Assembly: GCA_964276515.1 (NCBI GenBank)
Contig: OZ193909.1
Location: 17,360,001-17,424,000 of the forward strand
Length of the DNA: 64,000 bases
DNA from: Gordius albopunctatus
Taxonomy: Eukaryota
Reading direction: 5' to 3'
In this document: in pieces, positions 3,492 to 53,031 of the stretch
How the letters are laid out: every line of letters starts with the position of its first letter
How positions within the stretch are numbered: position 1 is the stretch's first letter
Notes under the pieces: model-generated
What the model was told of the DNA's origin: nothing
Database searches by the model: none
Seen by the model: only the letters and a program-made list of their open reading frames with translations
Made by a program: the position numbers and the translations under genes

Positions 3492-3818
3492 AACAACATT
3501 AATTGCATAATATTTCGATTGTTGCAAACATCAATTCTTATTAAGTTGTTATTTTAATGTGAGTAAAACTTATAAATCTTAATTATATTTACTAGGTTTT
3601 ATCGCAATTTTAATATTAAAAATATAATGTTCGTTTATTTTGTTAAACCTCATTGATCTTTAATATTGTGCAATTGTTATAATCTAGCTCAAAGATTTAA
3701 TTTGAATCATTAAATTAAGATTATTGCTCTCTCTTATGAAATATTTATTTATGCGGCGTCAGTTATATGAGAACACTTATCGACTCATTTGAGAAATTGA
3801 TTCTCGAACTACGTTTAA

Positions 3819-13479: not shown

Positions 13480-14702
13480 TTAAACAAGTAACACAGCATT
13501 GATGCATCCATCATTTTCAGGGACATTTGTTACTTGTGCATATTTTCCTGTAAATAAATTTAAGATGAGAAAGATATTTATAAATTTTGTTGAATGTAAA
13601 ATAATTTTTATAATTTATTTATATTAAGTATTTGTAAGATCATTTTTGTGTCAAAAAATCTTAATATTTAAAAATTAATCACAATAAAGTTGTCAAATAT
13701 AAATGTAATAAGTATTATTAATTTCATCAAAATTTGGGATGATATTTTACCCCAAACTATTTTTCCACCCTGTGTTACCAATCCAAGTTCACTAACATTA
13801 ACTTCAATAATTGTGCCTTTGGTTATAACCCCTAATGATGTGTAGAGTGGAGATGTTGGGTTCTTTTTTACCCCAATTATAGGTAATTGAAAAGTAGCTT
13901 TAAGCTCTGGATGTGTTACGTGTGCCTTGTTAAATCTTAAGCCCGAAGGTCTTATGAAACGTTCAAATTTAGGTGGTTTACGTGTGAAGTTCTCACCAAC
14001 ATAACAAACTTTAGTTACCATTCTTTTCCATGCCTTTTCTATTTAAAAATTACCAAAAAGATGTGAGGAAACATAAAAGTTTTAATAACTATTATTCTAA
14101 AATTTAAGGTACAAAATATAATTTGCGCACACAATAAATATGAAGAATATCTATAAATTAAGAAAATATAACCACAACTATTGATGACATACTTTTGGAT
14201 TTTCCTGTCCTTATAACTTTAAAAACTTCTTTTTCTGAAATGCCTTTAACTTTTGGAAGGTGGACATCCCATTTACCCTAAAAATATTATGGAATGATCA
14301 AATTTAAACTTACAGCCTTTTCTTTCCTTTTCTGCTTTATCATGTTTGATAAAACTTTAGATGTGCTTTGATTTTGTGCTTCACGATCAAGCAAATATGC
14401 AGGTAAAGCACCTTTTGGAGTATTCGCCACATCTTTATTTTTATTCTTAGTTTGCTTCAATTGATGTGATTTTAAGGTTTTTTGCAATGCAATCTTTTCC
14501 GCGTGTAGTTTTTTATTATAAAACTTCGCTTTTAATCCCTTAAGTTTTTTAGCTTTTTGCGCTCTAGTATGTCCTTCTCTAGCTTCACGTTTTCTTTTTC
14601 GTTCTTCATAATCAAATCTTCGTCCATGCTCTTTTCTAAACCTTTCAATGTATTCGTTTTGGGGCTAAAAATATATAATTTAAAATTTTTAATATTTACC
14701 AT
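13480..14702 (-). CDS. NSA2: Ribosome biogenesis protein NSA2; exons 14702-14700 (ATG only), 14664-14314, 14277-14193, 14038-13751, 13547-13480
   Basis: MPQNEYIE...[12 protein letters not shown]...[11 protein letters not shown]...[35 protein letters not shown]...[28 protein letters not shown] junctions in frame. Confidence 0.97.
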
Positions 14703-21022: not shown

Positions 21023-21769
21023 AAAATAGTTTAGTACAGCGTTTATACTAGTGTAATGTCATAGCCTAAAATCTATTTGTATAAATGAAGGCTTTTATAA
21101 TATTTGGTTGGAATGAGAAATAATTAGAAATTATGAGAGAGAAAAATTAGAAAGATAGTTATATCGTTATACCTTGTAAAACATTGATCAGATGAAGGTG
21201 TTATAGGTGAGGTATGATTATAATAAAAACCAGTATAAAAATAATGACTTAAAAAGTATAAAGTAAAAAAATTGATCTGATAAGTTTAGACCTGCAAGTG
21301 TATTTAAGTTTAAAAAGGGACTTATGGTATATTTATAAGGATAGCCAGCATTGGAATTAGAGGGGGGCAATAATGATTTAGGCAGAAGTAAAATGATAAT
21401 TTTTTGAAATGTTAACCATAATTTTAATAAATTAAAAAAATTGATTTGGATGGGGGGCAGCCATCCCTCCATGCCTCCCTCTGGCTACACCCATGGGTAT
21501 GTTAATATTTTTATTGTAAATATACAGTTTTAACTTTACCTGAGAGATGTTAAGATATGCCCGACCAGTCGGGCCAGGTTCGGGCCTGGCTTCGGACGGC
21601 CGAAAGAAAACTATGCTTAAATTTACCTAAAAATAAGTTTGGATAAGAATAAAACTGGGAGATTGATATGGTTGGTGGGGAAGAAACATATTGGCATTAG
21701 TAGATAGGCTAAAGTGAAGATATATACAGCTATACCTGTTATGGAGTTATAAAATTTAAAAATGCACAT

Positions 21770-23643
21770 GTCCAGTCAAAATCGTGGCTTCTTCAACGTT
21801 GCACATCAAGCGTTTTACAGCAAAACGTAAACCATTGCAAAATTTTGGCTGACTTAAATTGCACATCGCGATACTTGGTACGCCATATTTCGAATGCAGA
21901 ATGTGAGATGGCATCGCTGCCAGATTATTTGAATGGAAAGATTCGATTGCATAATTTGCGTCATTAATAACAACAGCAGTGTCAACCGACTTGTAAGTAA
22001 TTGAATTGCCTTGAATGTTAGACAGAATGAGATTGTTAAGCTCGTGGACGTCATTATTCTTGGTGGTGAGAATAGCCTGTTGGCGGAGCCAAAGTTGATC
22101 ATGATAATGGGCGTTAATATTTGGAAACACTTTATCAACCAAGCAGTTTAGATGGAACAAAATTGCAAATTTTGGTAGGAAAAGATATCCGTCCTGAGCA
22201 TAGATCAACGTGCACGGTTGCCTTCCCAATTTCTAGCAATTAATGGGAGAATATCTAACATGCAGGATGATTTAGAAATACTACACGCAGATTAGTAGTT
22301 AGATTTAATGTTTTGACATAAGGCAACAAAATTAAATATTTTAGGCAAGCATTAATTTCATCCGCAGGGGTGGATCGTAAGAGAACCGCTAAAGTTTGCC
22401 TGAAATCTCCTGCAAGCAATAACCTTGCGTTACCAATAGGTTTGATGGTTCTTTGTAAATCTTGCGATTACCGATTAGAACTTAGAGCGGTTTTTCATAA
22501 GCCATTGTGCATTCATCCCAAACGATAAGTTTGCACTTCTGTAATACTATACCCATTCCATATGTTCTGGAAATGTTGCACATTAGAGTTTCACAGTAAT
22601 AAGCGTTCAAAGACAATTTTTAGTGACAGCCCTTCCGGAACACGCTAGAACTACTGCTATATTAATTTGGGAACGAATAGTTGCCAGAGCAAAGTCAGTA
22701 GGAAAGTTTTACCAGTCCCTTCTCAAGCATCTAAGAAGAAGCTTCTCCTTAACCTTTATTAACAGCAAGCAAAATTTTATTGTAAGGGGGGGGGAGGCGA
22801 AAACTTTTTAAGTTCAATTAAAATGGGGGGGGGGGGCAAAATAAATTTTTTTTGAATTTTTAAGGTTTTTTTTGTCATTTAAGGGGTGAGGGCATAAAGC
22901 CAAGGGCTATCTACCTAGACTATTGCGTTCCGCAGTTGAATGGTTGCCACGCTACCACCATCCTCTATTGATCTTATTTTCTATAAAGGATACGCATCAC
23001 TGCCCGTAATCTAACTAATGTAGAGCCGACGTTCTGATTCCATTTTGCCTCACATATTACATTGATGGAATAATTGGCGGCATTTTAAATATGATTTTCT
23101 TCGTGCTCTCGAAGCATTATTCTTGCATTTCAAGTTTGTCGGTTAACCATTGTCTGCATTTATCAACTTACCGTTAAAGTAATCTTTTTGTACTTTTAAT
23201 ATTAATAACCGAACTTCATAAAAATAGCAAAAAAGCACGAAAGGTGGGAAGGTTTCTACAAGCGCGCCTTATATTTATATAAGAAAATGGTGATGTTTTA
23301 CGGTATCGAGAATATTTATTTGTTACAGCTTTATTTATTGTAAAAAACGGGCGTAGTTGAGTAAAAAATTGAGACACAAATTACAAAGCAATCATGGAAA
23401 AAAGTTTAAGGTAATTAGTAGTACCATAACGATAAATAAGTATAAAAACGTAGTATAAATAATCCGCTAGATGGCGGTATAGACTGCCAAAAAACATGGT
23501 TCCCGCTGTCGCAGGTTGATAAAAAGCATCTATAAATCATCTACAATGCTAAGGCAATAATCTGGCCAAATTTGGTGGCAATCGGTTGAGAACTCTAAAA
23601 GTTATTAGCGTTCAAAAAAAGGGACTTCGATTTTATATATATA
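21770..23643 (-). mobile_element. Degenerate Helitron (subfamily B) with PIF1 pseudogene; 3' end not found
   Basis: Shares the 5' terminal region (AACCGATTGCCACCAAATTTGGCCAG, CCATCTAGCGG) with the other copies; frameshifted PIF1 fragments; closely similar to 49744-51300. Confidence 0.85.
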
Positions 23644-24105: not shown

Positions 24106-24899
24106 GAGACGTACTTGAAAAGCGATATTGAATGTGAGCGGCATAAGTCCACACTCACTAAAAACCCGTATAAGTTTCCACAGAAGCATCCTGATTAATC
24201 TTATAACCAGCTTTAAAAGATTAATAAATATTCTATTATCCATGCCTATATAACAATTACAACCCAATAGAAGTGTCGGCTAAATCGAAAAATGCTTATT
24301 ATGATTATCATAACATAAACTGAATGATGCATACTTAAAAAATTCTGCATAATTCCAATTAAATGGATAGAAGAGATATTGTGTTACACTTAGAATTTTA
24401 TTATCTTAATAGCATTCTTTAACATCTCATCATCACAGCATTTTGATTTGTTTAACAGACAAGCAAATTGAAGCCCTCAAACATTCATCACTAAACCAAT
24501 TATGAACATTCATTTTAAACAAAAAAATCATTCATCATTATATTAGACCAACAAAAAAATACAAAGAGAAAGTGATTGATCAAATCCTCAGTATTGATTT
24601 TACTTCCAAACAACAATCATATTAACTATTATCAGAAGAAACTCCATGTTTACAAACACTTTATAATGTTTCCATATTACAAAATGTAAGCAATGTATAC
24701 CTTACAAGTTTTAATATGACCTTTGTTGAATCCTTTGAGCCTTTTTTTCCTCCAATATCATACAATTAATAACACTTTTCCCAGATACTCTTTTGTATTA
24801 TTAAACTTACAAAATTCTTATAAATCAAACAGCTTTAAAATAATCCCAACTTTAATTTTAATTGTCCAACCTCATCAAGGTTTTTTTTATTCCACATAT

Positions 24900-27851
24900 G
24901 TTAATCTCTAAACCCCTATGCCCAACCTGTAAGCGACGAATATGCCTTGATAAACATAATTGTTTCTGGATTCATGGCCCAGTGTCTTCAAGATGCCCTT
25001 CTTCGGGCAAATTACCTCCACCCTGCTTACCAATTCCACCCCTGGCTTCTAACTTTGAAGAGGCTCCCCTATTGCCAATTCCTAGCCCCGTCATCCCCCC
25101 ATCCTTACAATGCTCCCCATCAATTAATCAACCGCCTGACTCATCTTGGAGCAATTCTTTTTTAACAAACCCATTTCCTAATACTATCTCCAGAATCCCA
25201 AGAGGAGCCAGACCTTCCATCCAACAATCTCTGCTAAATATATTCACTTCCATTATCAAAAACCCTTATAACTTAACCAATTGGGACAAACTTTTTAAAT
25301 TCCCATATTATATCCTTTATGTTAGGGAACCTAATGAACATAATTTATCAAGCCTCATCAAGGAATCCCTTCTGTGTTTTAATACGGATGTTCCCATTAC
25401 ATGCACAAGTAAAACAAAACCCTTTCCACTGGAACCCACAATTAACCAAACAGCCAAGCACATTTCAAATAAAATCCATAATTTCAACCCAAGAAGTGCC
25501 CTTAGAGCTTTTTATGATAACAACTCAATTGCCCCTTGTTGCCCTGACTCTTATAGGGAGCTTAATCAAAAACACCCAGCAGCATCATCAGCCAGTAAAT
25601 ACCCCACATCTCCATCATCAATAGTGCTCGAGTCTTCAGACATCCGTGAAGCCCTTAACTCCTTTCCTTTGGACTCCGCAGCCGGACTTGACGGATGGCG
25701 CCCAGTATATCTACAAGATTTACTCAACCTGAATAATTTAAATACTGAACCTCTTTTAAATTCTATTACTTCCTTTTGTAATATCATTGTTAACGGAAAA
25801 TTTCCTCATGAAATCATCCCTATTTTATTCGGTGCAAAACTTATCGCCATCAAAAAACCGGATAATTCAGTTAGACCCATCGCCATTGGAAGTCTTTTTC
25901 GCCGTATTATATCAAAAACCCTCTGCAAACTCATAAAACCCTCCTTATCCGCCAAGCTTCGCCCTCATCAACTCGGCTTCGGAATTAAAGGCGGATGTGA
26001 GGCAGCCAGCCATGCTGGCCGGATCACACTCCAAAATATTTCCACCGAGTCCTGCTTTGTTAAATAAGATTTTGCCAATGCTTTTAACTGCATTCGAAGA
26101 GAAACCCTTATTAACACTTTTTTAGCTGAATTCCCACAATTCCTAAATTACATTTTATTAAGCTATGGTTCTACAACCAAGCTTCGATTCGGCGAATACG
26201 TCATTGACTCGCCCGAAGGCATCCAACAAGGAGATCCATTAGGCCCTCCTTTGTTTTGTTTAGCCATTCATAATTTAGTCGAGGCTATATCATCTCAGTG
26301 TATCCTGGATTTAAATGTTTGGTATCTCGACAACGCCACCCTATGTGGCCCCCCGGAGGAGATCAGTAAAGCTATACAAATTATCAAAAATTTTGAACCC
26401 ACTCTGAATCTTACATTAAACTCGAAAAAATGTGAAATCTTTCAGGCCCCCAACACTATTGACTTTCCAATTTTTAAACCTTTTTTAGTTTTAGAGAAGG
26501 AAAACATATCCCTTTTGGGATCACCCATTGGCGGTGAAAAATCTCTCTTAAATTTTCTTCATAAGAACCTTGAAATTTTCAAATCTAAAACGGAACTTTT
26601 AAAATGCTTGCCAGCGCATCACTCATTTTACATAATCAAAAACTATTTTAACATCTCAAAGATTAATCATTGTTTTCGCTCATCTGGCGCATTTTTACAC
26701 CCAGACGTTTTAAAGTCGTACGAAGGCTTTTTAAAAACATTATTAGAAAAAATTTTAAATTTAAAATTTAATACTAACAATTGGATTCAAGCATCCCTCC
26801 CAACCAAATCTGGAGAATTAGGAATTCGCCCTCCCGGCAGCATATCGCTAGCCGCTTTTATTTCTTCTTTTAAGTCGGTCCAAAACTTAATTTTTAATCT
26901 CATAAAACATGATTCCGACCCCCTGCTAACTCAAGCCTTGGAGCTTTGGAATTTGAATGTCACACCCGAGACCATCCAGCCTCAAAGTACGAGACAAAAG
27001 GATTGGGATTCTGGACTAGTATCGCGCTCCGTTGATTACCTCTTATCGAGCAGCGATGATAGCCAGCATTACAACCTTAGGTCCCTCGCTTTTGACGGTT
27101 CCGGTCACGAGTGGCTTGAAGCCTATCCCAGCAAACTTTTGGGAATGCTGCTTAAGACTTTGAGCTATCATATTCCATAGCTTTAAGTTTGGGGATTAGT
27201 TACAGCAGAGAATTCAACTGTCAAAACTGCCTTACCGTTGTAGACGAATATGCTAGGCACCCTCTACACTGCCTAGCAAACAAACATAAATACGTTAGGC
27301 ACACTAAAGCTAATTTATTAATTCAAGCTGCCCTTAAAAAGGCCAAAATCCCCTCAATTCTTGAGCCGTCCGATCCCTCCCTTGAAGGTAGGATGCGCCC
27401 TGACGGCTCTTCTCTAGTCCCCTGGCAAAATGGCCTATCCCTCAAATGGGATTTTACTTGTATTGACCTTTTTGCACCTTCCCATTTTAATTACGACCCT
27501 ATCGCTACAGAAGAAGGACGTAAAACTACAAAGTATTCTGCCCTTTTGGCATCCAATATTTTTATCCCTGTCGTTACCACGTGCTCCGGTTCCTTTGGCA
27601 AACAGGCAATGGGGTTTTTTAAAGAAATCGGAAAACGCACCCCGAAATCTAAAATTTCTGCGTCCTTTTTACTCAGGCAACAACTAGGGATTCTTGTTGA
27701 ACGATACAACTTTAAATCCTTCGCCGACTCATGGCCCATTTTAGAAGAGAATGATATAAATCTTTGTATTTAACCAATATGTCTTTATTTTTGTATTTCG
27801 CTTATTAATGTAACTTTGTTTCTTGAAAATAAACTTTTTAACAAAACAAAA
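24900..27851 (+). mobile_element. CRE-like non-LTR retrotransposon (Zn finger, RT, C-terminal restriction-like endonuclease), inactivated
   Basis: CPTC...HGP...RCPSSG; SAAGLDGW; VRPIAIGSLFRR; K*DFANAFN (stop 26065-26067); GIQQGDPLGP; WYLDN where YLDD is expected; CQNC...HPLHC, RH and RPDG RLE motifs after a frameshift; AATAAA and A-rich tail at ~27828-27855. Confidence 0.9.
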
Positions 27852-28251: not shown

Positions 28252-29460
28252 CTATAATGCTTGGGGATAGACAATATTTTTGGTCATGTTATTTTCTGTG
28301 TATATATAGAGATTTAGTGGATTGCCGACGCGCGAACATGCAACATATAATTGTCCATGTGAGAAGCGATCTGTTTCTAAATCGATTCCACAAAATTCAA
28401 GGGACTGGCCTTGAGCTTTGTTAATGGTTATAGCAAATGCGAGTTTGAAAGGAAATTGCAATCTTTTAAATTCAAAGGGCATATCTGTTGGAATTAAAGG
28501 GATCCGTAGTATGAAAACATCCTCTCCCGTGAAAGGTCCAGTCAAAATCGTGGCCTCAACAACGTTGCACATTAAGCGTTTAATAGCAAGACGTGTGCCA
28601 TTGCAAAGTTTTGGCTGATTAATATTGAGCAACATGATAATCGGTACCCCAATTTTCAAATGCAAAACGTGTGGTGATATGCCTGGAAGATCTAGAGAAT
28701 TTAAAAATTCGATCGGATAATTAACAGCGTCATCAGCAATAACAACAGTGTCAACCGACTTGTAGGTGACAGGACTGCTGTGAATGGTAGACAGAATGAG
28801 ATTGTTAAGTTCGTGGACGTTTTTATTCTTTGGGGCGAGAATTGCCCGTTGACGGAGCCAAATTGGATCTAGATAATGGGTGTTAATATTTGGAAAAACG
28901 TTTTCCAACAAAGCGGTTTTGGAAGGCACAAATTGACATAAGTTTGTAGGAAATGAAATCCGTCCTGAGTTTATATCAACGGGCACGGTTCCGTTTCCAA
29001 TTTCTAGCAATTGATGGGAGAATAACTCACATGGTTGTTTATTTTGTAACACTACACGCATATTAGTAGTTAAATTTAAGGTTTTGACGTAAGGCCACAA
29101 AATAGAATATTTAAAGCAAGCATTGATCTCGTCAGCAGTGGTTAATCGAGGAAGCACTGGTAAAGTTTGCCTAAAATCTCCTGCAAGTAATAAAAATGCG
29201 CCACCAAAAGGTCTGGAATCGCGCCGCAAATCTTGCAAAGAACGATCTAGAGCTTCGAAAGATTTTTTATGGGCCATTGTGCATTCATCCCACACGATAA
29301 GTTTGCACCTTTCTAATACTTTACCCATTCCAGATGCTCGTGAAACGTTGCACATGGGAGTTTCACTATAATGAATGTTTAAAGGCAATTTTACAGCAGA
29401 ATGTGCAGTTTTACCACCAGGCAACAATGTCGCAACTATTCCGGAAGATGCAAGAGCCAC
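28252..29460 (-). pseudogene. Helitron PIF1-like helicase fragment, open 402 aa but lacking the Rep/HUH domain and Walker A
   Basis: ASSGIVATLLPGGKTAHS, VWDECTM, GDFRQTLPV, LCNGTRL, TINKAQGQS, FSHGQLYVACSRV; no upstream GxGKT motif visible. Confidence 0.88.
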
Positions 29461-30494
29461 GGCTATTTCATTTTGGGATATTAAAAAGATATAAATATGA
29501 AATTAGCATTTAAGATAGCATTGCATTGCCATTAAAATTTAATTATATTAAATATATGGATTTTAAATATGATGAACTTACCTTATCCTGTCACAGATCA
29601 CAAACGTGTGAATGTGCAAATGTTACTTTAATTGTATTAAATATATGGATTTCTGTCACAGATCACAAACGTGGGAATGTGCAAATATTACTTCGAACTT
29701 CGTAAATATGGAAAAAAATCACGAAACGTGGGGATGTTTCTAAAAGCGCGCGTTATATTTATTTAAGTATATGGTGATGTATTACGGTATCTAGAATATT
29801 TATTGGTTACAGATTTATATATTGAAAAGAAAACGGGCGTAGTTGAGTAGAAAATTGAGACACAAATGACAAAGCAATCATGGAAAAAAGTTTAAGGCAA
29901 AAAGTAGCACCATAACGATAAATAAGTACAAACAACGCAGTATAAATAATGCGCTAGATGGCGCCAACCAAATTAAAAAACATGGTTCCCGCTGTCGTAG
30001 TGTGATAAAAAGTGTTTACAAACCATCTACAATGCTAAGGCAATAATCTGGCCAAATTTGGTGGCAATCGGTTGAGAACTTCAAAAGTTTTTATTCTTTT
30101 ATTCTTGAGTCAGTTTATTAAATAATCACCACCATTTATCATTAAAATAAAGCTTTGTTTCTAAACCATTGACACCGTTAATTTCTAATACATCTATAAA
30201 TAAATGAATAAACATATTTAATTTTATAAAAATTTAAAATTTAACCTAATTTTTTTCATAATAGATATGTACTTTTTCCAAATAGTGTATTATAATAAGT
30301 TAAAAAGGATACCAAAATTTGCAATATTCTTTAAGGTCGAGTAGGTTGCTAATCTATAAATTTATTTTCTCCAATTATTTATATATAATATTAATTTCAT
30401 GTTCAAATGAAATTTGCAATAAATAGGTAAATACATTGCATTACATAAATTAATATGCATTTAAGGGTAGATTTGGTGTGATTTTATTTAAATT

Positions 30495-34970: not shown

Positions 34971-35062
34971 ACAAGCTAAGTAATCAAATCCATTCCATTC
35001 TAACATCCAATTCTATTACAGTTATAGCATATTGCTTAAATATCAAAAAACATATATTAACA

Positions 35063-38000
35063 ATGAACCTTTTCACCATAATTTTAAGCACCTTGTTTCT
35101 CTCACTTGTCTTATCAGGTATAGTTTAAGTTTATAATGTACGTATATAAATTTAAAAAAAGGCATTTAATGTTGTGATTAATAAAAAATAATTATTTAAA
35201 TTTAATATTACTACGAAGAACAAATATATAATTTATCTTTTTAATCATTTAGCCCCCAAATCTGCCATAGATGGTGAGTGTGATAATGAATAAATTTTTT
35301 GACTAAACTATAGCTTATATTTTTTTACAATTTACTTTGAGACACAACGTTTAAATTGTTAAAATGTCCACTGAAGTTGTATCTATATTATAAAACTCAA
35401 ATTCTGTAACATCTAATTGGGTTGTTTAGTGCAAAATGATGACCCTGTGAAAACTGTTGTCCCTCTTGCCGGTAAACCAAATTATGAAAAAATACATTTT
35501 AAAAGCATTTAAATAATTTTTTTATTAATTTTTATTACATAGTTATGGAAGACATATTTTGGGAAGACTAATCAAATCATTTATTAATTATTAGCGAATT
35601 TATCAAGTAATGTCAACGATATTCCTTCCAATATCTTGATAAAATGTGTGTTAAAAAATCAAATTTGCCACGACATCTAACGAGGCTATAAACACTAAAA
35701 TATCAAAAAAATGTTTGTATTATTTAAAAAAAGTAATTTTTTTCAAAGAAAATTGTTTGTTTAAATTAACTTTTAGAAGTTCAACAAGGCGAGGCTATCA
35801 AGGAGACTTCGGCCTCAAGTAATTTTATTTAATGTTTAATGTCTTGTCTATAGATTGATAAATACATATTTCTGTTAAATTTTATATAGCCAATGTCACA
35901 AGTAGCAATTTAAAAACCATATCTTCGTTTATAAAAAAACCATATCATAATAAATATTGTTTATAGCTCAAAATCCACATTATGGCCATCACTATTCCGA
36001 AGGTTAACTAATTAAAAGATTATTTTTAATTATAAAATAAAAATACTTTTCAATATCATTATTATTATTTTGTTGCGTAGTAAATTTAATTTTATTACTA
36101 TTTTCATCGGAAAAACAATTATAGAAGTACAGAATGATGAAGAAATCACTACAGCTGCAGGTACACTAAGCCATTTATATAAATTGCCTAATTTTTATAA
36201 TAAATAATTATTTAAATTTATAAAGTTGCAAAACTAATAATGCTTATTAATATAATTATAGTTAATGTAACCTCTAAAGGTATATTAATTGTTTTAAAAT
36301 AACTTTTAATCAAAATATATGATTTTTTCGGCCATGGCTACACATACCATTTATTTTAGTAAGCGCAACTATTTTGAAAAATGCGTTTCTTATAATTAAA
36401 ATTACGAACAGGTTCGGTAATTTGTTTGTTTACGTGTAAAGAATAGCTATTTGTAGAACAACATGGATGACAAATGTAAAAAACAAACATATAAATAGTT
36501 GTTTTAATCTAAAATTTATTGGAATTCAAATCAGAGGTCAGATTTGTTAGGAATTTTATGCCCGAACCCGGCCCGGTTCAATTTTTGAACTTCATTGCCC
36601 GCCCGAGCCCGCCCGAACCTTCTAGGTGCCCACCCGGGCCCGCCCGAAACATTAAAGCTGTCCGAACTGCCCGGCCCGAAATATTAAATTTGCCTGTTAG
36701 GCCTGAAATTTTGCGATCTCAAATTCTTTCAGCCACAATTAAAAAATAAGCATTAAATTAATGGCATATTTAATAAAACAAGTCCATGAAAATATTTATG
36801 TACCAATTTTTTAATTAAGTTTAAAGTTGACATATTAAATAAATAATATTACAATAAACAAAATTATACTCCCCTTTGGAGTTAACCCCTTTGCCCAGCC
36901 CATAAATAAACTTCTTAATGAATAAAATTAGTTCAATTAGTCAATCTGTGTTCTGTTAAAACTTACTTTTTTGATAAAAAGACAATAATTTATCAATAGA
37001 ATTTAAATGCAATTTATGGATAATTCTTTTAACTTAAAGCAAAAAAAGAAAGGTATAGAAATTTTTTATTATGAAAATAATTAGTAACTTAGCGAAAGCG
37101 ATGAATAATAAGGAAATAATAAAGGTTAATTAGAGAAACTTTGTGATGGCGAAATCAAGTTTCTTAACTTTTTTAGCATTTTAATATGCAATAAAATAAA
37201 AAGTAACAAAATAATACACTATTTAAAAAATCTTATTAAGCCCGAATCCTATCTTCGTGCCGAGCGCCCGGGCCCGCCCGAAAATAAAAATTTAGGAAAG
37301 TTGCCCGGCCCGACCCGGCCCACGGGCCGGTCAATCTGGTCTCTGATTCAAATCAAAGTTTTAAGTAATTAATTTTTGCAAAATAATTTATGAAATTTTT
37401 TTAAGTTTCAAGTTAAATGAATATCAAAACAATCAAATTTAAATGTCTTTTTTATATAATTTAGTTTGATTTCATATTTTAAATAATATAAAAATGAGAA
37501 TTGTATATATGTCTAGGTTCTTATTTAACTTTATTGATAAAGCTGACCTTTAATGTGTTAGATACACTAATAAATTGATAAAATACTGTAATAAATAATT
37601 TAGTATAAAATACATCTTTTATTAACCATAAATTATAATATCAAAATGTACAGATCATTTTAATAAATTTAGGAATTTTAACACAGGTGGAAGAGTTTTT
37701 TGCACTTCAATAGGTTTGCTTTTCTGCTTAAAGATTAAACCTAAAAAAATTGTATAATATAATTAATATGTATTAATTTACTAGTGTTCTTTTTCAATCT
37801 ACCATTGCCTTTCCTAAACTTTGAAAGCATTTTAATAGACTCCAATCTATTTTCAATACCTAAAAAGTTTACAACAGTTTAAATTTCACTTCTGTGCAAA
37901 ATCTAATATGTGCAAAATCTAATATAGGCAAGGGTTAGGGTTCGATTTAGTGATTTATTTGATAATATGTATTTATTTATAAAATAGTATTATACATTTT

Positions 38001-39351
38001 GATATAACTTATTTTGTTTCAATTAACAATTATAGTATCCTTTTATTACGTAGTTTTTTAGTACATATTACATGCGTATGAATATGCGTGAAAACCGGTC
38101 TCAATTTCTAAAATACGAATATTACATTATTAGATTTTGCACATATTAGATTTTTCACCAGATTCTTAGATTTAATTACTTTTTAGAAAAGGCTGTTGGG
38201 AATCACTAACATCATAATTATTAGTAACTATGTTGGATTGTTGAGGATTACCTACATCTTAATTAAGAAATTAACAATAAAACTTAAGTTACTCGCAGCC
38301 ATTCTGAAAATTTCAAGGACTCTACGTTCTAACATATTAGCTTTGAAATGTTCAATACCAATGAAATACATATCAAACAACTTATCATCCATCTCACATG
38401 CTATGGAATTTAATTCTGAAGTTATGGTCTAGAATTTTTTGATTTTTGGACAATGATCTTTCAATTGTAGGCCCATTGTGAATTTGAATGATAACCCCAT
38501 TTTCAGAATCCACATCATTTGGCCCAGATTTTACCCATCTCTCTGGGCATAATTTAGTGTCAAAGTATTCAATGTTGTTAAATTTCCTTGCCTTAAAGGG
38601 GTGACAACAAGGCAACAATATGCTGCTTTTAAAGCCACATGAGCATGTGGTTTCTGTGATATAATAATTTTTTTTTCATATTCCGCCTTAGCCTTGAGTA
38701 AATCAAATAGTTATTCGAAATAATATCCAAAAGTTTCTTTCTATAACGATATAATACTTTAAAAAAATTATACTTACCGTCTTTATACAATTAAATGACC
38801 CTAGGCGATTAAAATCAAACAAAAAATAATTGCGCTATTTAATTGTAAACAACGACATCATAATACCGATCATTTGTTGATCGGAAAATGGTAATTATAA
38901 GAAACGAATTTTTTGAAAATGGCTGCACATACTAAAATTAATGGTATGTGTAGCCATCGCCATCTAAGGGTAGTGATTTTAAATAATCTATAGTAGAAGT
39001 TCAACACGATGAACCAGACAAGGAAACACATCCTTTTGGTATTGTATTGCAAAGAATATTAAATTTAATTAAAATATTAAATTGTAGTCAATTCAACTAC
39101 AGGTAATTTATATATTATATTTTAAAAAATCCCCCAAAACAAATAGCCTAATATGTCTATTTATATATATATTTAAGCATCTGCTCCAACCACTTTAGAA
39201 GGTAAGTCACCTTATTTAATTACCATAAAAAATAGAATGAAAAAATTAAAATTTTATTATAGAACTTCAAAATGATCAGTCACCTGGGAATATCACAATA
39301 TATTTAGAAGAGTATAGTGATGGTTTTCCAATTATGTATTATAATAAGTAA
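35063..39351 (+). CDS. Candidate micro-exon gene encoding a ~133-aa secreted, N-glycosylated low-complexity protein; exons 35063-35117, 35253-35273, 35430-35471, 35595-35606, 35777-35818, 35890-35901, 35967-36002, 36125-36160, 36262-36279, 39088-39102, 39178-39201, 39263-39351
   Basis: Each internal exon is bounded by AG and GT and is phase 1/1, with lengths 21, 42, 12, 42, 12, 36, 36, 18, 15 and 24. Joined ORF: MNLFTIILSTLFLSLVLSAPKSAIDVQNDDPVKTVVPLAANLSKVQQGEAIKETSASTNVTTQNPHYGHHYSEEVQNDEEITTAAVNVTSKVNSTTASAPTTLEELQNDQSPGNITIYLEEYSDGFPIMYYNK*. Hydrophobic N-terminal signal peptide. Terminal exon uncertain. Confidence 0.75.
36532..37345. mobile_element. Non-autonomous hAT (Hermes/hobo-like termini) in the long intron of the micro-exon gene
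   Basis: TSD ATTCAAAT; termini CAGAGGTCAGAT / ATCTGGTCTCTG, the same family as 44205-47170. Confidence 0.92.
37655..38660 (-). pseudogene. SWIM zinc-finger C-terminal remnant, probably from a MULE/Mutator transposase, with short introns
   Basis: TTCSCGFKSSILLPCCHPF...FDTKLCPERW (CxC-x9-CxH); further exon-like pieces at ~37803-37859 and 37655-37740; interrupted by the MITE at 37887-38165. Confidence 0.65.
37887..38165. mobile_element. MITE, second copy of 11419-11691
   Basis: Near-identical sequence; TSD TTAAATTT / TTAGATTT. Confidence 0.85.
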
Positions 39352-39668
39352 TTTAATTATAATTTACTAATTCAACATTTGAGACGAAGTTCTCATAATA
39401 TTAAAATTACCCCTTTCCTCAACTTTCAATATTGTCGACACTTTACATGATAAAAACCAAGTCATTTTATAGCTACTTCATTCATTAATAATCTCTTACA
39501 ATTTCATACACATTCATACACATGCCTTTATATAAACCAATATCTTTCATAATATGCTTATATACTTTGTTATCGCTTAGAACTGATCAATAAATCAATT
39601 CAAAACGCTCTGTTTTTTTATTCCCTGAATCGTATAAATAGTGATGCGGAAAACTGAGAAAGATATCA

Positions 39669-40502: not shown

Positions 40503-41040
40503 TAGAGATGCACCGATACCAAGTATCGGCATGGTATCGGCGCCGATACCTTGCCAAAAGTATCGGCCGATACTTTGCTAGTATCGGCAATTATCAAGCC
40601 GATACCTTTACAATATGAAACTCAAAAAATAATATTTATAGTATCTCCTACCATTAAAAAATAGAGGACTTTTTAAATTTTTTGAAAATTGTTTCATTAT
40701 ATTGGCTATAAATATTTCTATGTGGAGTATAATAAACTCATTCACCATCTGTTCCGAATAACTGCGCTTTTAAGTAAATATTGTTTAATTTGAAAAATTA
40801 TTATATATTAAGCCTTAGATGGATTCTTTAGATACACTATGGAGTTATTTTGTTGTGTCAGCAGATGAAAAAATTGTAATCTGTGAATTATGCAAAGCTA
40901 AAATAAGTCTTGGGGGCAAAGACAAACATTCCTTTAATACTTCAAATTTAAGGAAACATTTAAAAACTAGACATACAATAGAATTTCGCAGTGTTCTTAA
41001 AAATGAAAGTGATATTAATATAAAGATTAATTTGAATAAA
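40503..41040 (+). mobile_element. Left end of a hAT element with a BED zinc-finger exon, truncated
   Basis: TAGAGATGCACCGATAC terminus, repeated GTATCGGC/CCGATAC; LWSYF...CELC...NTSNLRKHLKTRH BED finger. Confidence 0.85.
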
Positions 41041-41809
41041 CAATTAATATTATATTACAATTGTTTTATCGTCAAAATTCTGATCTACCAAAATTTGGAT
41101 ATGACTTAATTTATAATATTTAATTTGCATATGACGAGACGAGAATTTTAATGTCGAGATGATACGAGATTCTTTCGGCGAGATCTCGACTTTTTATTGA
41201 TCGTTAGATTTTAGTAAATTATTGTGTATTTTAATTTGCATGATTTACATTTAAAAAATTAAGTGTAATTCAATATGTATGGAATATATTTGATATGAAA
41301 AAAATTCCTAAGTGTAGTAAATATTATATATTTTTGCAAAAAATTTAAAATTTGCCAATCATTTACCTTGTGAATAATTTTATAATCAAAATTTTAGGTT
41401 TAGAATGAGATATGATGGAATAGGAAATATTACTAAAGCATATTTGAATTTCGCAGTTACTCATCCTGCATGATGCGGTAATTATAAATTGGTGTTCAAT
41501 CAGTTTGAATAAGTATACAAGTTAAACTAAGGTGGCTCGAGATTTTTAAGCACCCGCCTAACGATTTCAAAAGTACAATAGAGTATTTAATGACACCGTA
41601 ATAGATTAAATCTTAAATCATGAGTTTTTTAAAAGTTTTTATGCTTTAACTAACATTTTCGAATCTCAATATTCTGTGAATACTGTAGTGTAGCGTCATT
41701 CAAGGTTGCATTTTAAATACACGCGTTTTTTCCTATACTTGAGCGCGGTCAAGTCACAGACATTTGATTATACGCGTAGCCATTTGAATACACCCTAGTT
41801 TACTGTAGA

Positions 41810-42921
41810 GAGGTATCAAGCGAATGCAAGAAGTGGCGCGGCAGTATATATGGTGGCCTACTCTCGACGATGACTTATTGAGCGTAGCGAAAGGGTGCCT
41901 GAATTGCAATTACACGGCCACGGTGGCGAAGAAGGCACCGTTGATAGAGTGTCAACCCAGCCATAAACTATGGGTCCAAGTACATATCGATATCATGGGT
42001 CCTCTCAAGGGTAAGTCATACCTCGTGATGGTAGACAAGAGCTCGAAATCGGTAGAGGTGTTTAAATTAGAAGACACCACATCGACAACCATTATAAAAA
42101 AACTGGCCGAAACGTTTGCTAGATTTGGAAATTCACCATGGTTAATATCAGATAACGGTCCACAATTCAAAGGGCAGGATTTACAGAACTTTTGCAAGAT
42201 GAGAGGGATTAATCAGCGATGGACAGCTCCTTACCATCCTGCGTCAAACGGTTTGGCAGAAAGATACGTACGATTAATGAAAGAAGCCATCCTTAGGAAC
42301 GAGTCGGAAATAGGGCTAAGTAGATTTTTGGAAAACTACAGATCGACAAAACACCCCGCAACCAATAAAAGCCCGGCAGAGATGATTTTAAAAAGGCGTA
42401 TGCAAACCGAATGGGAGGTATTAAGGGAAACCGTACCAAAACAATGGGTAGAGACCGGGAACCCGCGAATTTTCAACGTAGGAGACTTGGTTTGGGTACG
42501 CATGTTTTTGGGTCCAAGCAAATGGGTAGAAGTCACGATAAAAGCCAAACACGGGAGTCGTTCCTACGATGTATGGGCACAGGGAAGAAAGCACCACCGA
42601 CACCTGGATCAATTAAGGAAACGGAGAATCCTGGATTGGACCACTCTGGGACAAGAGAACGGGTGGCTACAAAGAAGATCATCAGAAAGGGAAGAGGGAA
42701 CAAAGCCAAAACCAGGCAGGAACGCCTAGGGAAGAACCGAGATCCGGAGATACGTTATTTACCTGCGTGTTTACGTTATTTACCCGCGTGTTGTCGATCA
42801 AATTATCGTTAATTGGTTGTAACTTATATATGCGTTTGTTATATACGGTGAAGGTCACTTTTTCGAGTATTGTATCCCAGTCCTAATAGTTTATGTGAAT
42901 AAAGATCCAGCCCTTCAACAT
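41810..42921 (+). mobile_element. Ty3/Gypsy integrase fragment with possible 3' LTR remnant
   Basis: YIWWP...CLNC; VHIDIMGP; LISDNGPQF; APYHPASNGLAER; YRSTKHPATNKSPAE; AATAAA...CAACA near 42900-42921. Confidence 0.88.
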
Positions 42922-44204: not shown

Positions 44205-47170
44205 CAGAGGTCAGATTTGTTGGGAATTTTCTGCCCGAACCCGGCCCGATTCAATTTTTTAACTTCGTTGCCCGCCCGGGCCCGCCCGAACCCATCTAAG
44301 TGTCCGCCCGGGCCCGCCCGAATCGTTAAAGCTGCCCGAATTGCCCGGCCCGAAATATTAAATTTGCCCTTTAGTCCCGAATTTATGAGGTCCCAAACAG
44401 AGGTCGGATTTGTTAAATTTTCATCCACGTCCTTGTCTAAAACATCATTCAAGTATGAATCGATCTCATCTAATGCCGTATCATCTTCATCATCAGCCCA
44501 TTCCGAAAATGTCGCCTTTCTTTTTTTACCTGCTTAAATAAAGTATAGGGCATCATAAATTAATCTTACCATGAGAGATTGGATCTTTAGGAATGGTTAC
44601 ACTTACAACATCCATTTCTTCATAATCTTTAATTGTTTTGCGCACAAAGCTAATAACTTCGTCCCTTTCATTTTGTCCCAGCATTTTTAATTTTCGAAAT
44701 CGGGGGTTTAGCATTGTTGCTGCTTTATGATATAATGTGAGCGCAAAAACCTCGTTAATTTCATCTTTTAATCTTGTTTTGAGAGTGGAAATTTCGTCGT
44801 GGTCTTTTGGATCGTTTTTTAAAGAATCAATTATTTTAATTTTCCACAAAAATATATAAGGAAAAGTTGTATCCGAATCAGCCTGAAGCTGAGTGCTAGC
44901 TTCTTCAAATGGCATTAAAAGCTTAATAATTTCGTTGAGCAAGCTTAAATCAATATTCATTAACTTATGAGTTTCACACTTTTGCGTCAATATTGTGCCA
45001 ATATTGTCGTATTGACGTTGTATTGATTTAAGCATGGCCAATTTTGTATTCCACCTAACATCAACGTCTTGATGCAAGGTGTACTTAAGATCTTTGTTGA
45101 GACCACTTTGTTTAAAATATTTTACTAGTATTTTTGAATCATTTAAAATATTGGAAATTTCTGGGGCAAAATCTTTTAAACAACTTTCTTTAAAGGAATG
45201 TCTTAATATTGTATTGATTAAATGTGCTGTACAGTTGTAACGGTTATACTGTTCCAGGGCCTTTTTAATATTTGCGCCTTTGTCTGTGACAAAATTAATT
45301 GATTGAAAACTTTCCTTTTTAAAGCCAAATGACATGAATTTTTTTATTAATTCAGTTTTAATATTTTCTCCGCTTTTTTTATCGGGATTAAACTTTGTCG
45401 TGAAAAGAAGGTTATTTGATAATACCCAATCTTCATTTATATAATGCAAGGTAAATGATATATAATTATTTTTAATATGATCGTCTACCCACATATCTGT
45501 GGTGGCAGACACGAGGCCGTTGTCCAAATAAGGAATTAACTTTTCCGCGACATCCTTTCTTAATTTGTCGGACAAATTATTTACATTTTTTGATATTGTA
45601 GTAGGATGAGGCATTATATTATTAATATCTATGTGACCTTTGGAAGCCCCAATATCAATTAATAATTGACAAAAAGCCTCGAAGCCTTGGCCTGCAATAG
45701 CCTCAAATGGCCTAATATCTTTTGCGCAAAATAATACTGCACTTTTTGTTAGCTTTTGTTTAATCTCACTAATAGCATTTAAAGCGAGATTTTTATTGAT
45801 GTATTGTGTTATTTTTGGATTTGAGGGAATGCATGAATGCCTATTTAAATGCGAAGTTCCATCGCTGGATTTATATTTTAAAATTTTACAACAATTTTTG
45901 CATATTATAAAGCCCGAATATGCGCCAGCGCCATTAACTATCGTTTTAAACTTCTGCCAAACAGCACTTTTTAGTTCAACATCTTTTGTTGTAAAAACAC
46001 CATCATCAATACACTTCTTCACATCTACTGGGTTCAATGAGGCACACTGACTACTTTCTGACGAACAAGTTGACATGCTGCAAATGAGAAAATATATAAA
46101 ATAGTTCATTTATTCAGCAAAATATAACTCAAAAGTAAATTTATCCAGGAACTAAGAGATTTTCAGAATACAGTAACAGAGTTTAAATTTAGAATAGGGA
46201 AGACCGGGGACTAAATAGCCATTAAAAATTGTGGGAAGGGGTGAAAATGCTTATAGGGGGGTATTAAATGCAAAATGATTAGTTAATTATTTATACAAAT
46301 TTTCTATGCCTACAAGAAAATTTAAAATTAAAAATTTAAAATTGGGAGGTTGATGCTAACTAATAATAATGACTCGTCTTACCGTAGATTATTTATGATG
46401 TATATGACATTAAGTTATGAAAATATTTGAAGTGGTTTTAAGAATGTTTCATAAATAAACAACAAAAATAAGAATGCAATATTTTGGACAATTTGCGTCA
46501 AACTTAAATTACTTATAACATATGAGAGAGTTAAAAGTATAGGGAAATTCAGCAAGCAAATAATACAAGATATAATTACTTTTAAATAAGTCTAGTATAA
46601 AAAAATAAATATCGATATTTGAATTAATTTAGCTAATGATCATATAATCAAAGTAACTGTTAACAAATAAATCATAAATCTACTCATCTCATAAATTGCA
46701 TAGCAATTAATATAACTTACTTTGCCATAGAATGATAATTTAGTTGTTAAAAAATTTAAATAATTAGAATGTAACACTTATATTCGCGCGCATTGTTAGA
46801 AAATGGCATGAGCCCTTGTTTTAAGTCTAGACGGCGACGGCACACATGTGTGTGTAAGTGTATTGCGAACATGAAATGGCTACATAAATATAAATAATCC
46901 AATCCTTTTCTGAAACTATAAACGTACGATAAGGATTTAAGCGATGGAAAAAAATCTAGTCAAAAAATTGTTTATAAGCGAATTTTTCTTTTTTCGAGGA
47001 AAATTAATTTGAAAAATTTTTGGCATGCCCGAATTGCCCGAATCTTATCAGCGTGCCCGCCCGGGCCCGCCCGAAAATTAAAACTTAAGACAGTTGCCCG
47101 GCCCGGCCCGGCCCATGGGCCGGGCCGGGCGGGCCGGGCAGCGGGCCGGGCCGGGCATTTCTGGTCTCTG
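44205..47170 (-). mobile_element. Hermes/hobo-like hAT transposon with a long transposase ORF but lacking the C-terminal catalytic/dimerisation segment
   Basis: TSD CAAGGAAT; termini CAGAGGTCAGA / TCTGGTCTCTG; GCCCG subterminal repeats. Confidence 0.95.
44410..46109 (-). pseudogene. hAT transposase (BED finger, first two catalytic Asp), C-terminally deleted
   Basis: VWQKF..CKNC..GTSHLNRH; DIRPF; ATTDMW; VTDKGANI; CTAH; VRWNT. A short intron at ~44530-44569 precedes an acidic exon that runs into the terminal repeats with no SERxFS motif. Confidence 0.88.
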
Positions 47171-48779: not shown

Positions 48780-51349
48780 CTAGCTGTGCCCGGCCAAGCG
48801 TTGCTTTGGCTTAGTCCTTAATTAGCTAAATGGGTCAATCGTTTATTGTTAAGCTGTGTAACGCACAGAAAAGTTGAACGTTGTAAAATAGCGAACCTCA
48901 ATCCCGATTTGCTATTCGTTAAAAGCACAAAATGATGAGTTTTGACGTTTAGTACGTGTTTTTTTACTAGCAGGGGATTGGGTGGGGATTTGCAAAAAGC
49001 ATTGTTACTTTTGACGATCTCATTGTTATACCATAGTGTTTCTAAATTTGAACGTCATAGAGATAGATAAGTAATACATTTAACTGATATAATTATATTC
49101 ATCTTAATAACATTTTCTAAGGAGGTAGATGCTAATTGTGTTGTCACTTTCTTGTGCCGAAGATCGCAAAACACTCAAATACCGAGCCATTGCTCATTCT
49201 AAGATTTTTATTCCAATAGTAGCTTCCTGTTCGGCCACTTTTGGCAAAAAAGCATTAGCTTTTTTTAAATCGATAGGAAACAGATCCCCCAAAGCTAAAT
49301 ACTCACCCAGCCTTATTTTACGCCAAAAAATCGGAATTCTGATAGCTAAATATAATTACAAATCTTTTTCTGACACATGGCCCGTGTTGGCTATTGACAA
49401 TTGTGATGAATAATTTTTTTTTATTTATAATATTATTTTAAGTCCGTTTATTGTATATTTCATGTACCAATTTTAGCGAATAAAAGCATTTTAATCATTA
49501 AAAAAATATTATTTTTTACCCTCTTGGGGTGTTTTGCCCCCCCCCCCCCATATTAATGTTCAATTGTCTTGTTTAATGTATTTGTTTGTTATCAAATCTG
49601 GAATGAAATAATATATAAAATATAAAAATGTATATAATACCTTTCTAAAACTCTTGTGTATTAGTTATCTCTGTTCTTGTTTAATGTATTAGTTATATCT
49701 AATTCAAATTTAGGATAATTGAAGTTCAAATTTAAAAACGCTAATTGGATTGCCTTGAATGTTAGACAGAATAAGATTGTTAATCTCGCGGACGTCATTA
49801 TTCTTGGGGGCGAGAATAGCCCGTTGGCGGAGCCAAAGTCGATCATGATAATGGGCGTTAATATTTGGAAACAGTTTATCAACCAAGCAGTTTAGATGGA
49901 ACAAAATTGCAAATGTTGGTAGGAAAGATATCCGTCCTGAGCATATATCAACGTGCACGGTTGCCTTCCCAATTTCTAGCAATTAATGTGATAATATCTA
50001 ACATGCAGGATGATTTAGAAATACTACACGCATATTAATAGTTAGATTTAATTTTTTGACATAAGGCAACAAAATAGAATATTTTAGGCAAGCATTAATT
50101 TCATCCGCAGGGGTGGATCGTAAGAGAACCGCTAAAGTTTGCCTGAAATCTCCTGCAAGCAATAACCTTGCGTTACCAATAGGTTTGATGGTTCCGTTGT
50201 GCATTCATCTCGAACGATAAGTTTGCCCTTCTGTAATACTATACCCATTGCATATGTTCTGGAAATGTTGCGCAAGAGTTTCAAAGTAATAAGCGTTTAA
50301 AGACAATTTTTAAGCTGAATGAGCAGTTTTTCTACCGGGTAATTATGTGACAGCCCTTCCGGAAGACGCTAGAACCACGGCTATATTAAATTGGGAACGA
50401 ATAGTTGCCAGAGCAAAGTCAGTAGGAAAGTTTTACCAGTTCCTCCTCAAGTATCTAAGAAGAAGACTTCTCCTTTATTAACAGCAAGCAAAATCTTATT
50501 GTAAAGGGGGGAAAAACGTTTTAAGTTCAATTAGGATGGAGGGGGGGGGGGCATATAAATTTTTTTTGCATTTTTAAGGGTTTTTGTATTGAATTATTTT
50601 TGTCATTTAAGGGGGTGGGGGCATAAACCCAAGGGCTATCTACCTAGAATGGTTGCCACGCTACCACCATCCTCTGTTGATCTTATGTTTTATAAAGGAT
50701 ACCCATCACTGCCCGTAATATAACTAATGTAGAGCAGACGTTCCGAATCCATTTTGGCTCACATATTACATCGATGGAAAAATTGGCGTCTTTTAAATAT
50801 GATTTTCTTCGTGCTCCCGAAGCATTATTCTGTATGAATAATCATATAACTGCATTTCAAGTTTGTCGGTTAACCATTGTCTGCATTTATCAACTTACCG
50901 TTAAAGTAATCTTCCGAACTCCATATAAAAAGCAAAAAGCACGAATTCTAAAACCGCGCGTTATATTTATTTAAGAAAATGGTGATGTTTTACGGTATAA
51001 AGAATATTTATTTGTTACAGCTTTATTTATTGTAAAAATACGGGCTTAGTTGAGTAAAATATTGAGACACAAATTACAAAGCAATCTTGGAAAAATTTTA
51101 AGCAAATTAGTAGCACCCTAACGATAAATAAGTATAAAAAACGTAGTATAAATAATCCGCTAGATGGCAATAGACTACCAAAAAACGTTGTTCCCGCTGT
51201 CAACCATCTACAATGCTAAGGCAAAAATCTGGCCAAATTTGGTGGCAATCGGTTAAGAACTCTAAAAGTTATTAGCGTTCAAAAAAAGGGACTTAGATTT
51301 TTAATTGCTATGCAATTTATGGGCTCGTCGTTTTATATATACAGATAGA
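48780..51349 (-). mobile_element. Helitron (subfamily B), both termini present, PIF1 pseudogene, containing a CRE 3' fragment
   Basis: Minus-strand A|TC at 51350/51349 and CTAG|T at 48783-48779 with the GCCAAAGCAACGCTTGGC hairpin; GDFRQTL motif. Confidence 0.9.
49140..49506 (+). mobile_element. 5'-truncated CRE-like retroelement (RLE C-terminus + 3'UTR)
   Basis: EDRKTLKY...IFIPIVASCSATFGKKALAFFKSIG...LRQKIGIL...KSFSDTWP is homologous to the end of 27189-27773; AATAAA and a short A-tail follow. Confidence 0.85.
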
Positions 51350-52158: not shown

Positions 52159-53031
52159 GTGCGTATGGTTCGGTTTACTTGCAACTTCTGCTTCTTTTAT
52201 TATATCCACAGCGTATATCCACTTATCGCGTTGCACGCTGGCCTTTATAAGCTTGTTGATTGCTTTTAGACGCTCTTTCTTAAATTTGGCTGATGATCTG
52301 GTTATTGCGCTCCTATCATCCGTAAGGCGAAGGGATTCAAAGGAGAGCGATTTGTTATTATGGGGGGTGGATTTTAAGTTGAGCGATGATGTGATAAGGC
52401 TTTCTGTTATCCAAGCGCTTTGCTCATCGATGGTCATGTTAATTGGTTGTGGTGTTGACTCAATTCTCTTTTGCAGGTTCTCGTTTACTCTCAGCGTCGT
52501 TTTGACGTGGCAAGGGAGTTACGCGAGCCTTTTTTGAGGTGTTATGTAGCGATGCTGACGTGATTTAGATATCTGCCTCTAATATGTGGTGGTCCGGTGA
52601 TATGTAAGGGTTGGGGTAGGATGCGTAGTTTCTAACAAATCTTTTTGTATTAGAATTCGGTCAGGATGTGATTGATTTGAGAGCTTGAGGGCCTATCAGA
52701 CCTTATGACGATGGCTGCAATATTTCGAGATGTGGAGGGTGCTTTTATTATATGGATCTCATTTTAGTAAGTGGTAGATCCCGAGCACAGCATAATCCCC
52801 GTTTGCATGAAGTGCTAGGCCGGATTAAGGAGAGCGGTATGATCTTTAGCCAAGAAAAAAGTGTGTTTGCGGTAAAAGAAATAACCGATTTGGGTCATAT
52901 ATTGAGGGGAGCTACTATAGAACCGGTGGCGGACTAGGTGTGATTAGAACGTTGAGAATTCCTAGCACAAAAAAGAGCTACAGAGCTTCTTGGGTGTTTT
53001 TAATTATTATAGTTAGCTTATCAAATATTTA

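Follow-up and report, generated by a model that had tools for sequence, protein, structure and literature searches.

Sequon-Only Micro-Exons in a Predicted Secreted-Protein Gene of the Hairworm Gordius albopunctatus

Introduction

Can an exon of 12 to 18 nt that encodes almost nothing but an N-glycosylation sequon (N-x-S/T) serve as a unit by which splicing sets the number of glycans on a secreted protein, or has such an exon a simpler origin? This question is raised by a locus in a 64,000-nt stretch of Gordius albopunctatus DNA (contig OZ193909.1; the whole stretch is called the window here), in which a 13-exon gene model can be drawn on the forward strand at positions 35063–39351. An initial annotation of this DNA had proposed that the four smallest exons are cassettes that turn individual N-glycans on or off. 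We propose instead, with a probability of about 0.6, that the locus is a real micro-exon gene predicted to encode a secreted, multiply N-glycosylated repeat protein, and that its sequon-only exons would have come from the duplication of one exon pair.

Blood flukes provide the best-known examples of micro-exon genes (MEGs), which presumably generate variant proteins where these parasites meet their hosts. MEGs of Schistosoma are described as having a 5′ exon for the signal peptide, symmetric micro-exons and small, disordered, secreted products, and as forming gene families (PMC10526429, PMC4671649, PMC4350168). A size limit of ≤36 bp is given for their micro-exons (PMC4671649) and a length of 0.1–5 kb for their introns (PMC10526429), and the genes "appear to be restricted to platyhelminths" (PMC4350168).

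Results

Gene Model and Predicted Protein

All 12 introns of the model are in phase 1 and all 24 splice sites carry the canonical AG or GT. The joined reading frame has 148 codons with no internal stop and is closed by the TAA at 39349–39351. The exons are listed below; a slash within a splice motif marks a possible splice point.

35063..35117, + strand: exon 1, predicted signal peptide from the start codon on (18 codons plus 1 base); donor AG/GTATAG
35253..35273, + strand: exon 2, 21 nt, (A)PKSAID, phase 1-1
35430..35471, + strand: exon 3, 42 nt, first exon of module 1 (VQNDD...)
35595..35606, + strand: exon 4, 12 nt, second exon of module 1, (A)NLS sequon
35777..35818, + strand: exon 5, 42 nt, first exon of module 2 (KVQQGE...); tandem acceptor TAG/AAG
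35890..35901, + strand: exon 6, 12 nt, second exon of module 2, (T)NVT sequon
35967..36002, + strand: exon 7, 36 nt, (T)QNPHYGHHYSE, His/Tyr-rich, without a sequon
36125..36160, + strand: exon 8, 36 nt, first exon of module 3 (EVQNDEE...)
36262..36279, + strand: exon 9, 18 nt, second exon of module 3, (V)NVTSK sequon
38994..39038, + strand: exon 10, 45 nt (42 nt with the acceptor at 38997), first exon of module 4 ((V)EVQHDE...)
39088..39102, + strand: exon 11, 15 nt, second exon of module 4, (V)NSTT sequon
39178..39201, + strand: exon 12, 24 nt, (A)SAPTTLE
39263..39351, + strand: exon 13, module 5 unsplit (ELQND...NIT, 39289–39297), aromatic/acidic tail, TAA at 39349–39351

The internal exons 2–12 measure 21, 42, 12, 42, 12, 36, 36, 18, 45, 15, and 24 nt. 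All 11 are multiples of 3 in phase 1-1, most of them ≤36 nt and the remainder 42–45 nt long, and the last exon contains 86 coding nt followed by TAA. Eleven of the 12 introns have lengths of 49–170 nt; intron 9 extends over 2714 nt, of which 82 nt are left when a transposon insertion is subtracted. The G+C content is 38.3% in the exons vs. 18.4% in the 11 short introns, a contrast that favours a coding role of the exons.

In exon 1 (55 nt) the ATG is the first in frame downstream of a stop, and the codons that follow give an 18-residue hydrophobic leader with a grand average of hydropathy (GRAVY) of 2.0. Signal peptide, disorder and glycosylation were judged from sequence features only, and the leader was assessed by eye. 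The predicted mature chain consists of 130 amino acids (aa) with an isoelectric point (pI) of 4.4 and a GRAVY of −0.77, and is rich in Thr, Glu, Val, Ala, Ser, and Asn. The model protein contains exactly five sequons, at residues 41, 59, 87, 108, and 129, all of them downstream of the leader.

Sequence of the Four Sequon Exons

As had been noted initially, the smallest exons of the model are the four of 12, 12, 18, and 15 nt that carry a sequon: CGAATTTATCAA at 35595–35606, CCAATGTCACAA at 35890–35901, TTAATGTAACCTCTAAAG at 36262–36279, and TCAATTCAACTACAG at 39088–39102. Each is preceded by TAG, with GTA on its 3′ side. The initial annotation had translated them as (A)NLS, (T)NVT, (V)NVTSK, and (V)NSTT, had described the Asn codon AAT as the first whole codon in each, and had placed a fifth sequon in the last exon. 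We found these translations and their coordinates to be exact: the intervals lie between AG and GT in phase 1, AAT occupies exon bases 3–5 in all four, and the fifth sequon, NIT, is present at 39289–39297. The reading NLS, NVT, NVTSK, NSTT is obtained in the phase-1 frame only, and both other frames of 36262–36279 have stops. Pooled, the four intervals contain 18 G+C in 57 nt (32%).

Across the five sequons the Asn is constant and the X position is occupied by L, V, V, S, and I, while the Ser/Thr is kept despite changes of its codon (TCA, ACA, ACC, ACT, and ACA). A varying X between a constant Asn and Ser/Thr is what a glycosylation site in use would be expected to show, and may indicate such use here, although the sample is small.

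A Repeated Two-Exon Module

Exons 3, 5, 8, and 10, as well as the 5′ part of exon 13, open with (K/E/V)-(V/L)-Q-(N/Q/H)-(D/G)-(D/E/Q). The first four of these are each followed by one sequon micro-exon, giving modules of 18–20 residues. The general form, x-VQ(N/Q/H)(D/G)(D/E)...x-N-x-(S/T), is present in five copies, four of which are split by a phase-1 intron one codon ahead of the Asn. Alignment of modules 1–4 with MAFFT brought both VQxD and N-x-S/T into register. At the nucleotide level, exons 5 and 10 show 74% identity over 34 nt and exons 8 and 13 show 86% identity over 21 nt, with either match extending a few bases into the acceptor. The first exons of the modules scored above shuffles in all pairs (z = 1.2–4.2).

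The simplest history for this arrangement is probably an old tandem duplication of one two-exon unit in which the intron already stood one codon before the Asn. Such a duplication would account for the phase, the AAT position and the size class that the sequon exons share. Since module 5 has its sequon inside the long last exon, the sequon appears to be tied to the repeat itself and not to the micro-exon format. No second copy of the gene was found in the 64-kb window, where a tblastn search with the model protein matched only the gene's own exons.

Tandem acceptors 3 bases apart were observed in the VQND-type exons 5, 8, and 10 (35774–35782, 36122–36130, and 38991–39002); they have the form TAG/AAG, extended in exon 10 to TAG/TAG/AAG, and the choice of acceptor would gain or lose one residue. 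The true start of exon 10 is ambiguous, because the acceptor at 38997 gives a 42-nt exon beginning with EVQHDE, like the other modules.

Frequency of Sequons in Comparable Short Segments

As the initial annotation had suggested, we determined how often sequons occur in random segments of this kind, taking all AG-(12/15/18 nt)-GT segments that are open in phase 1 on both strands of the 64-kb window. Sequons were present in 8 of 316 segments of the forward strand, four of the eight being the modelled exons, and in 9 of 354 segments of the reverse strand. Within the gene span the rate was 4 of 17, far above the 13 of 653 (2.0%) outside it, which amounts to an enrichment of about 12-fold (binomial P for at least 4 of 17 = 3.0 × 10⁻⁴). 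With the stricter form TAG...GTA, sequons were found in 5 of 26 forward segments, namely the four exons and 52629–52646, and in none of 22 reverse segments; the single additional one at 52629–52646 is a chance case. The sequon pattern is real and does not come from picking among many candidates. It had also been held that this pattern backs the exon calls beyond their symmetry. The enrichment upholds that view. The four exons are paralogous copies and not independent events.

These counts bear on the possibility that the four intervals are AG...GT segments within introns and that the mRNA joins the longer exons directly, which would yield a 129-aa product with one sequon. Omission of the intervals keeps the frame, AAT is common in AT-rich DNA, 13 other open segments of the same sizes occur in the gene span, and our searches gave neither RNA nor homologue support, the RNA query being mostly intron. 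We nevertheless consider this explanation unlikely in view of the enrichment (12-fold over background, P = 3 × 10⁻⁴) and of the context of the intervals. All four combine a TAG acceptor with a GTA donor, a combination shared by one other sequon segment in 64 kb, and each lies directly after a VQND-type exon. Moreover, the unsplit module 5 has its sequon within a long exon, and the G+C content of the four intervals is 32% vs. 18% in introns.

Exon Skipping and a Possible Control of Glycan Number

The initial annotation had predicted that each skipping event would cost a single sequon. This agrees with the model: loss of exon 4, 6, 9, or 11 is in frame and takes away exactly one sequon each time, and without all four the product would have 129 aa and a single sequon. 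The four exons could then be regulated cassettes, and the combination included would set how many N-glycans the secreted protein has and how far apart they lie. Schistosome MEGs are stated to use symmetric micro-exons in this manner (PMC4350168 and PMC4671649, citing DeMarco 2010), and short inserts that act through N-glycans are known. The 9-residue, alternatively spliced insert B of neuroligin-1 has an effect attributed to its N-linked glycan (PMC3084293), and exclusion of FBLN2 exon 9 removes one N-glycosylation site (PMC12095903). In neuroligin-1, however, one experimentally studied site is located in a folded domain with a known partner, whereas the hairworm locus has four repeated sites on a chain predicted to be disordered. 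FBLN2 exon 9 is an ordinary-sized exon of a large vertebrate matrix protein and not a sequon-only micro-exon as in the hairworm.

Several features of the locus argue against such regulation. Skipping in frame without a stop is a property of all 11 internal exons and does not single out those with a sequon. The splice sites of the sequon exons are not weaker than others: their donors match AG/GTAAGT at 5, 4, 6, and 7 of 8 positions vs. 4–8 in the other exons, and their pyrimidine tracts are likewise of no lesser strength. Where introns are short, intron definition and mostly constitutive splicing are favoured, and with lengths of 49–170 nt the introns of this gene would be expected to promote constitutive inclusion. 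Finally, the uniform layout would be explained by the duplication and therefore gives no independent evidence for a designed switch. A set of four regulated glycan cassettes thus seems improbable to us.

The exons might also be real while N-x-S/T owes its retention to something other than glycosylation, such as a function as a peptide-binding motif of the repeat, or while the gene is a silent or decaying member of its family. The 2.6-kb transposon nest in intron 9 and the transposon-rich window would fit a silent locus, yet the 148-codon frame is intact and 24 of 24 splice sites are canonical. The X position varies while N and S/T are fixed, as expected of a glycosylation site, and the predicted signal peptide would put the chain inside the endoplasmic reticulum (ER) lumen. 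N-x-S/T in a disordered chain within the ER lumen is normally used. We regard both variants of this explanation as very improbable.

Related Copies in the Genome

Variant copies were obtained from genomic contigs of two runs, X1 and X2; the contigs are colinear with the introns, and none is joined at the predicted splice sites. They may represent alleles or paralogues, and the differences described here come from 12 of 20 indels and 40 of 58 substitutions. Exon 1 is overlapped by seven other contigs per run, and of the three differences listed for it one is L>I, the others being synonymous. A related copy of exon 5 with six base differences reads VQEDEP, which makes it another member of the same exon type. 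In a related copy of exon 9, GTA is replaced by CTG at the X position (V>L, two bases), and the Asn and Thr are unchanged. Among the indels listed, 12 of 12 are in introns. These features of the copies speak for a coding gene.

A pile-up of contigs of both runs was seen at 35040–35125 and 35771–35856, that is, on exons 1 and 5, where the summed depth in X1 is about 3500–5000 vs. about 310–400 elsewhere. This depth is not a copy number; it hints at a multi-copy family that has these exons in common.

Evidence Against the Proposed Gene and Database Searches

A number of results weigh against a real gene built by duplication of an exon pair. The introns between the modules are barely more similar to each other than shuffles (z = 1.2–3.3) and near saturation, and the duplication is therefore deduced from the short exons only. 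Measured against the protein's own composition the excess of sequons is modest, with five in the 130-aa mature chain where 100,000 shuffles average 1.70 (P = 0.013), and the gene span includes the 13 further open 12/15/18-nt AG...GT segments mentioned above. The sequon intervals all have lengths divisible by 3, so that the reading frame survives their presence or absence alike and says nothing about their inclusion. Among the substitutions listed, 15 of 40 are exonic, which is no depletion given that exons make up 274 of 1261 nt; this share is inflated because extra paralogue contigs map to exons 1 and 5. No RNA run matched 35000–39400, a query that is about 90% intron and whose exons mostly fall short of the 31-letter words of the index. 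With a query so rich in introns and an mRNA of ~450 nt composed of tiny exons, this blank says nothing about expression. A query with the signal-peptide exon (40 aa) returned nothing at E ≤ 10, and the 33-aa stop-to-stop open reading frame (ORF) of the last exon had no credible relative among 1.84 billion representatives.

Nine matches to the last-exon ORF (E ≤ 0.001) were rejected as relatives; the eight of them that were inspected are all long repeat proteins of 380–3341 aa that were matched in several stretches. Judged by motifs, they resemble what we take to be PKD-type and BNR-type repeats. A Pfam search with the last exon gave no family. Neither similarity to a MEG family nor a platyhelminth origin of the DNA was indicated, as the last-exon ORF was without a relative and the nearest match of a neighbouring gene, NSA2, was to Gordionus.

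Intron 9 and the Neighbourhood of the Gene

The ribosome-biogenesis gene NSA2 at 13483–14664 (− strand) was recognized by three blocks that align to a Gordionus protein with about 80–100% identity (81%, 91%, and 100%; the next-best hit to the 81% fragment reached 67%), and this similarity identifies the window as that of a gordiid nematomorph. Its donors are GTAAGT and GTATGT and its acceptors TTTTAG and AAATAG, with which the splice signals of the micro-exon gene in the same window (T-rich...TAG, GTA) agree, in favour of the gene model. One NSA2 intron (14313–14278, GTAAGT...TTTTAG) has a length of 36 nt, so that short introns around tiny exons appear normal for this genome.

The nested transposon insertion in intron 9 occupies 36330–38961 and is bounded by 52-nt inverted repeats (36330–36381 and 38910–38961) that are 87% complementary. 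Inside it we observed a GC-rich element with GCCCGCCCGAA-type repeats (about 36530–37346), a palindromic element with arms at 37894–37924 and 38128–38158, and a 93-codon ORF at 38394–38675 (− strand) without a Pfam match. Over the repeats of this intron (36470–37351 and 37793–38233) the contig depth is about a thousandfold that of the flanks.

The remainder of the 64-kb window consists largely of transposons. PIF1-like helicase ORFs of the Helitron type are located at 28252–29502 (−), 4663–5701 (+), 21756–22232 (−), and 49710–49982 (−); the most complete copy has 416 codons, and those at 4663–5701 and 28252–29502 are nearly identical in protein. Further mobile-element ORFs, at 44553–46109 (−), 40819–41109 (+), 41809–42729 (+), and 24862–27773 (+), include an uninterrupted 518-codon hAT/Hermes-type transposase, zf-BED, an integrase of a retroelement and, extending over three adjoining ORFs, a reverse-transcriptase element. 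ORFs with BTB and BACK domains at 1364–2996 (−) are probably exons of a BTB-BACK(-Kelch) gene.

Discussion

Our analysis favours a secreted, multiply N-glycosylated repeat protein encoded by a real micro-exon gene. One ancestral module, including its intron, would have been copied several times, after which the introns diverged to saturation while selection may have kept the VQND motif, the Asn and the Ser/Thr of the modules. The product would enter the ER by its signal peptide, where oligosaccharyltransferase could add up to five N-glycans. On the 14-kDa chain, which is acidic (pI 4.4) and predicted to be disordered, these would be spaced by 18–28 residues. The sequon exons would most likely be included constitutively, and combinatorial skipping is conceivable. 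The related copies suggest a small gene family in which the signal-peptide exon is conserved and the mature part changes faster, a design for which schistosome MEGs are known.

The closest parallel is found in the MEGs of Schistosoma as described in the articles cited in the Introduction. Like these, the hairworm gene appears to have its signal peptide in a longer 5′ exon (55 nt), has most of its coding region in very small exons that are multiples of 3, has a small, predicted secreted and probably disordered product, and gives signs of several related copies in transposon-rich surroundings. Unlike them, its introns, at 49–170 nt and not 0.1–5 kb, are not of the long kind, all of them are in phase 1, and it has a tandem two-exon module with four exons of about one sequon each; no description of sequon-only exons was found in the schistosome MEG literature at hand. 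It also differs in that it belongs to Nematomorpha, and the likeness to MEGs that we observed is one of architecture. No paper that combines micro-exon genes with Nematomorpha was found in the literature at hand. Judged by its architecture, the locus is likely to represent a known, MEG-like gene design in a phylum where it is unreported.

A bolder proposal would be that hairworms independently evolved a schistosome-like micro-exon family in which 12–18-nt sequon cassettes let splicing dial the number and spacing of glycans at the host interface. We consider this quite improbable in its full form.

If the gene is real, the presence of a MEG-like gene in Nematomorpha, likewise a phylum of parasites, would speak for convergent evolution, and it would mean that automatic annotation misses genes of such design. 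The sequon-only exons would then offer the cleanest natural test of splicing control over glycan number. Should the exons prove constitutive, the locus would still show how duplication of an exon pair can multiply the glycan sites of a protein.

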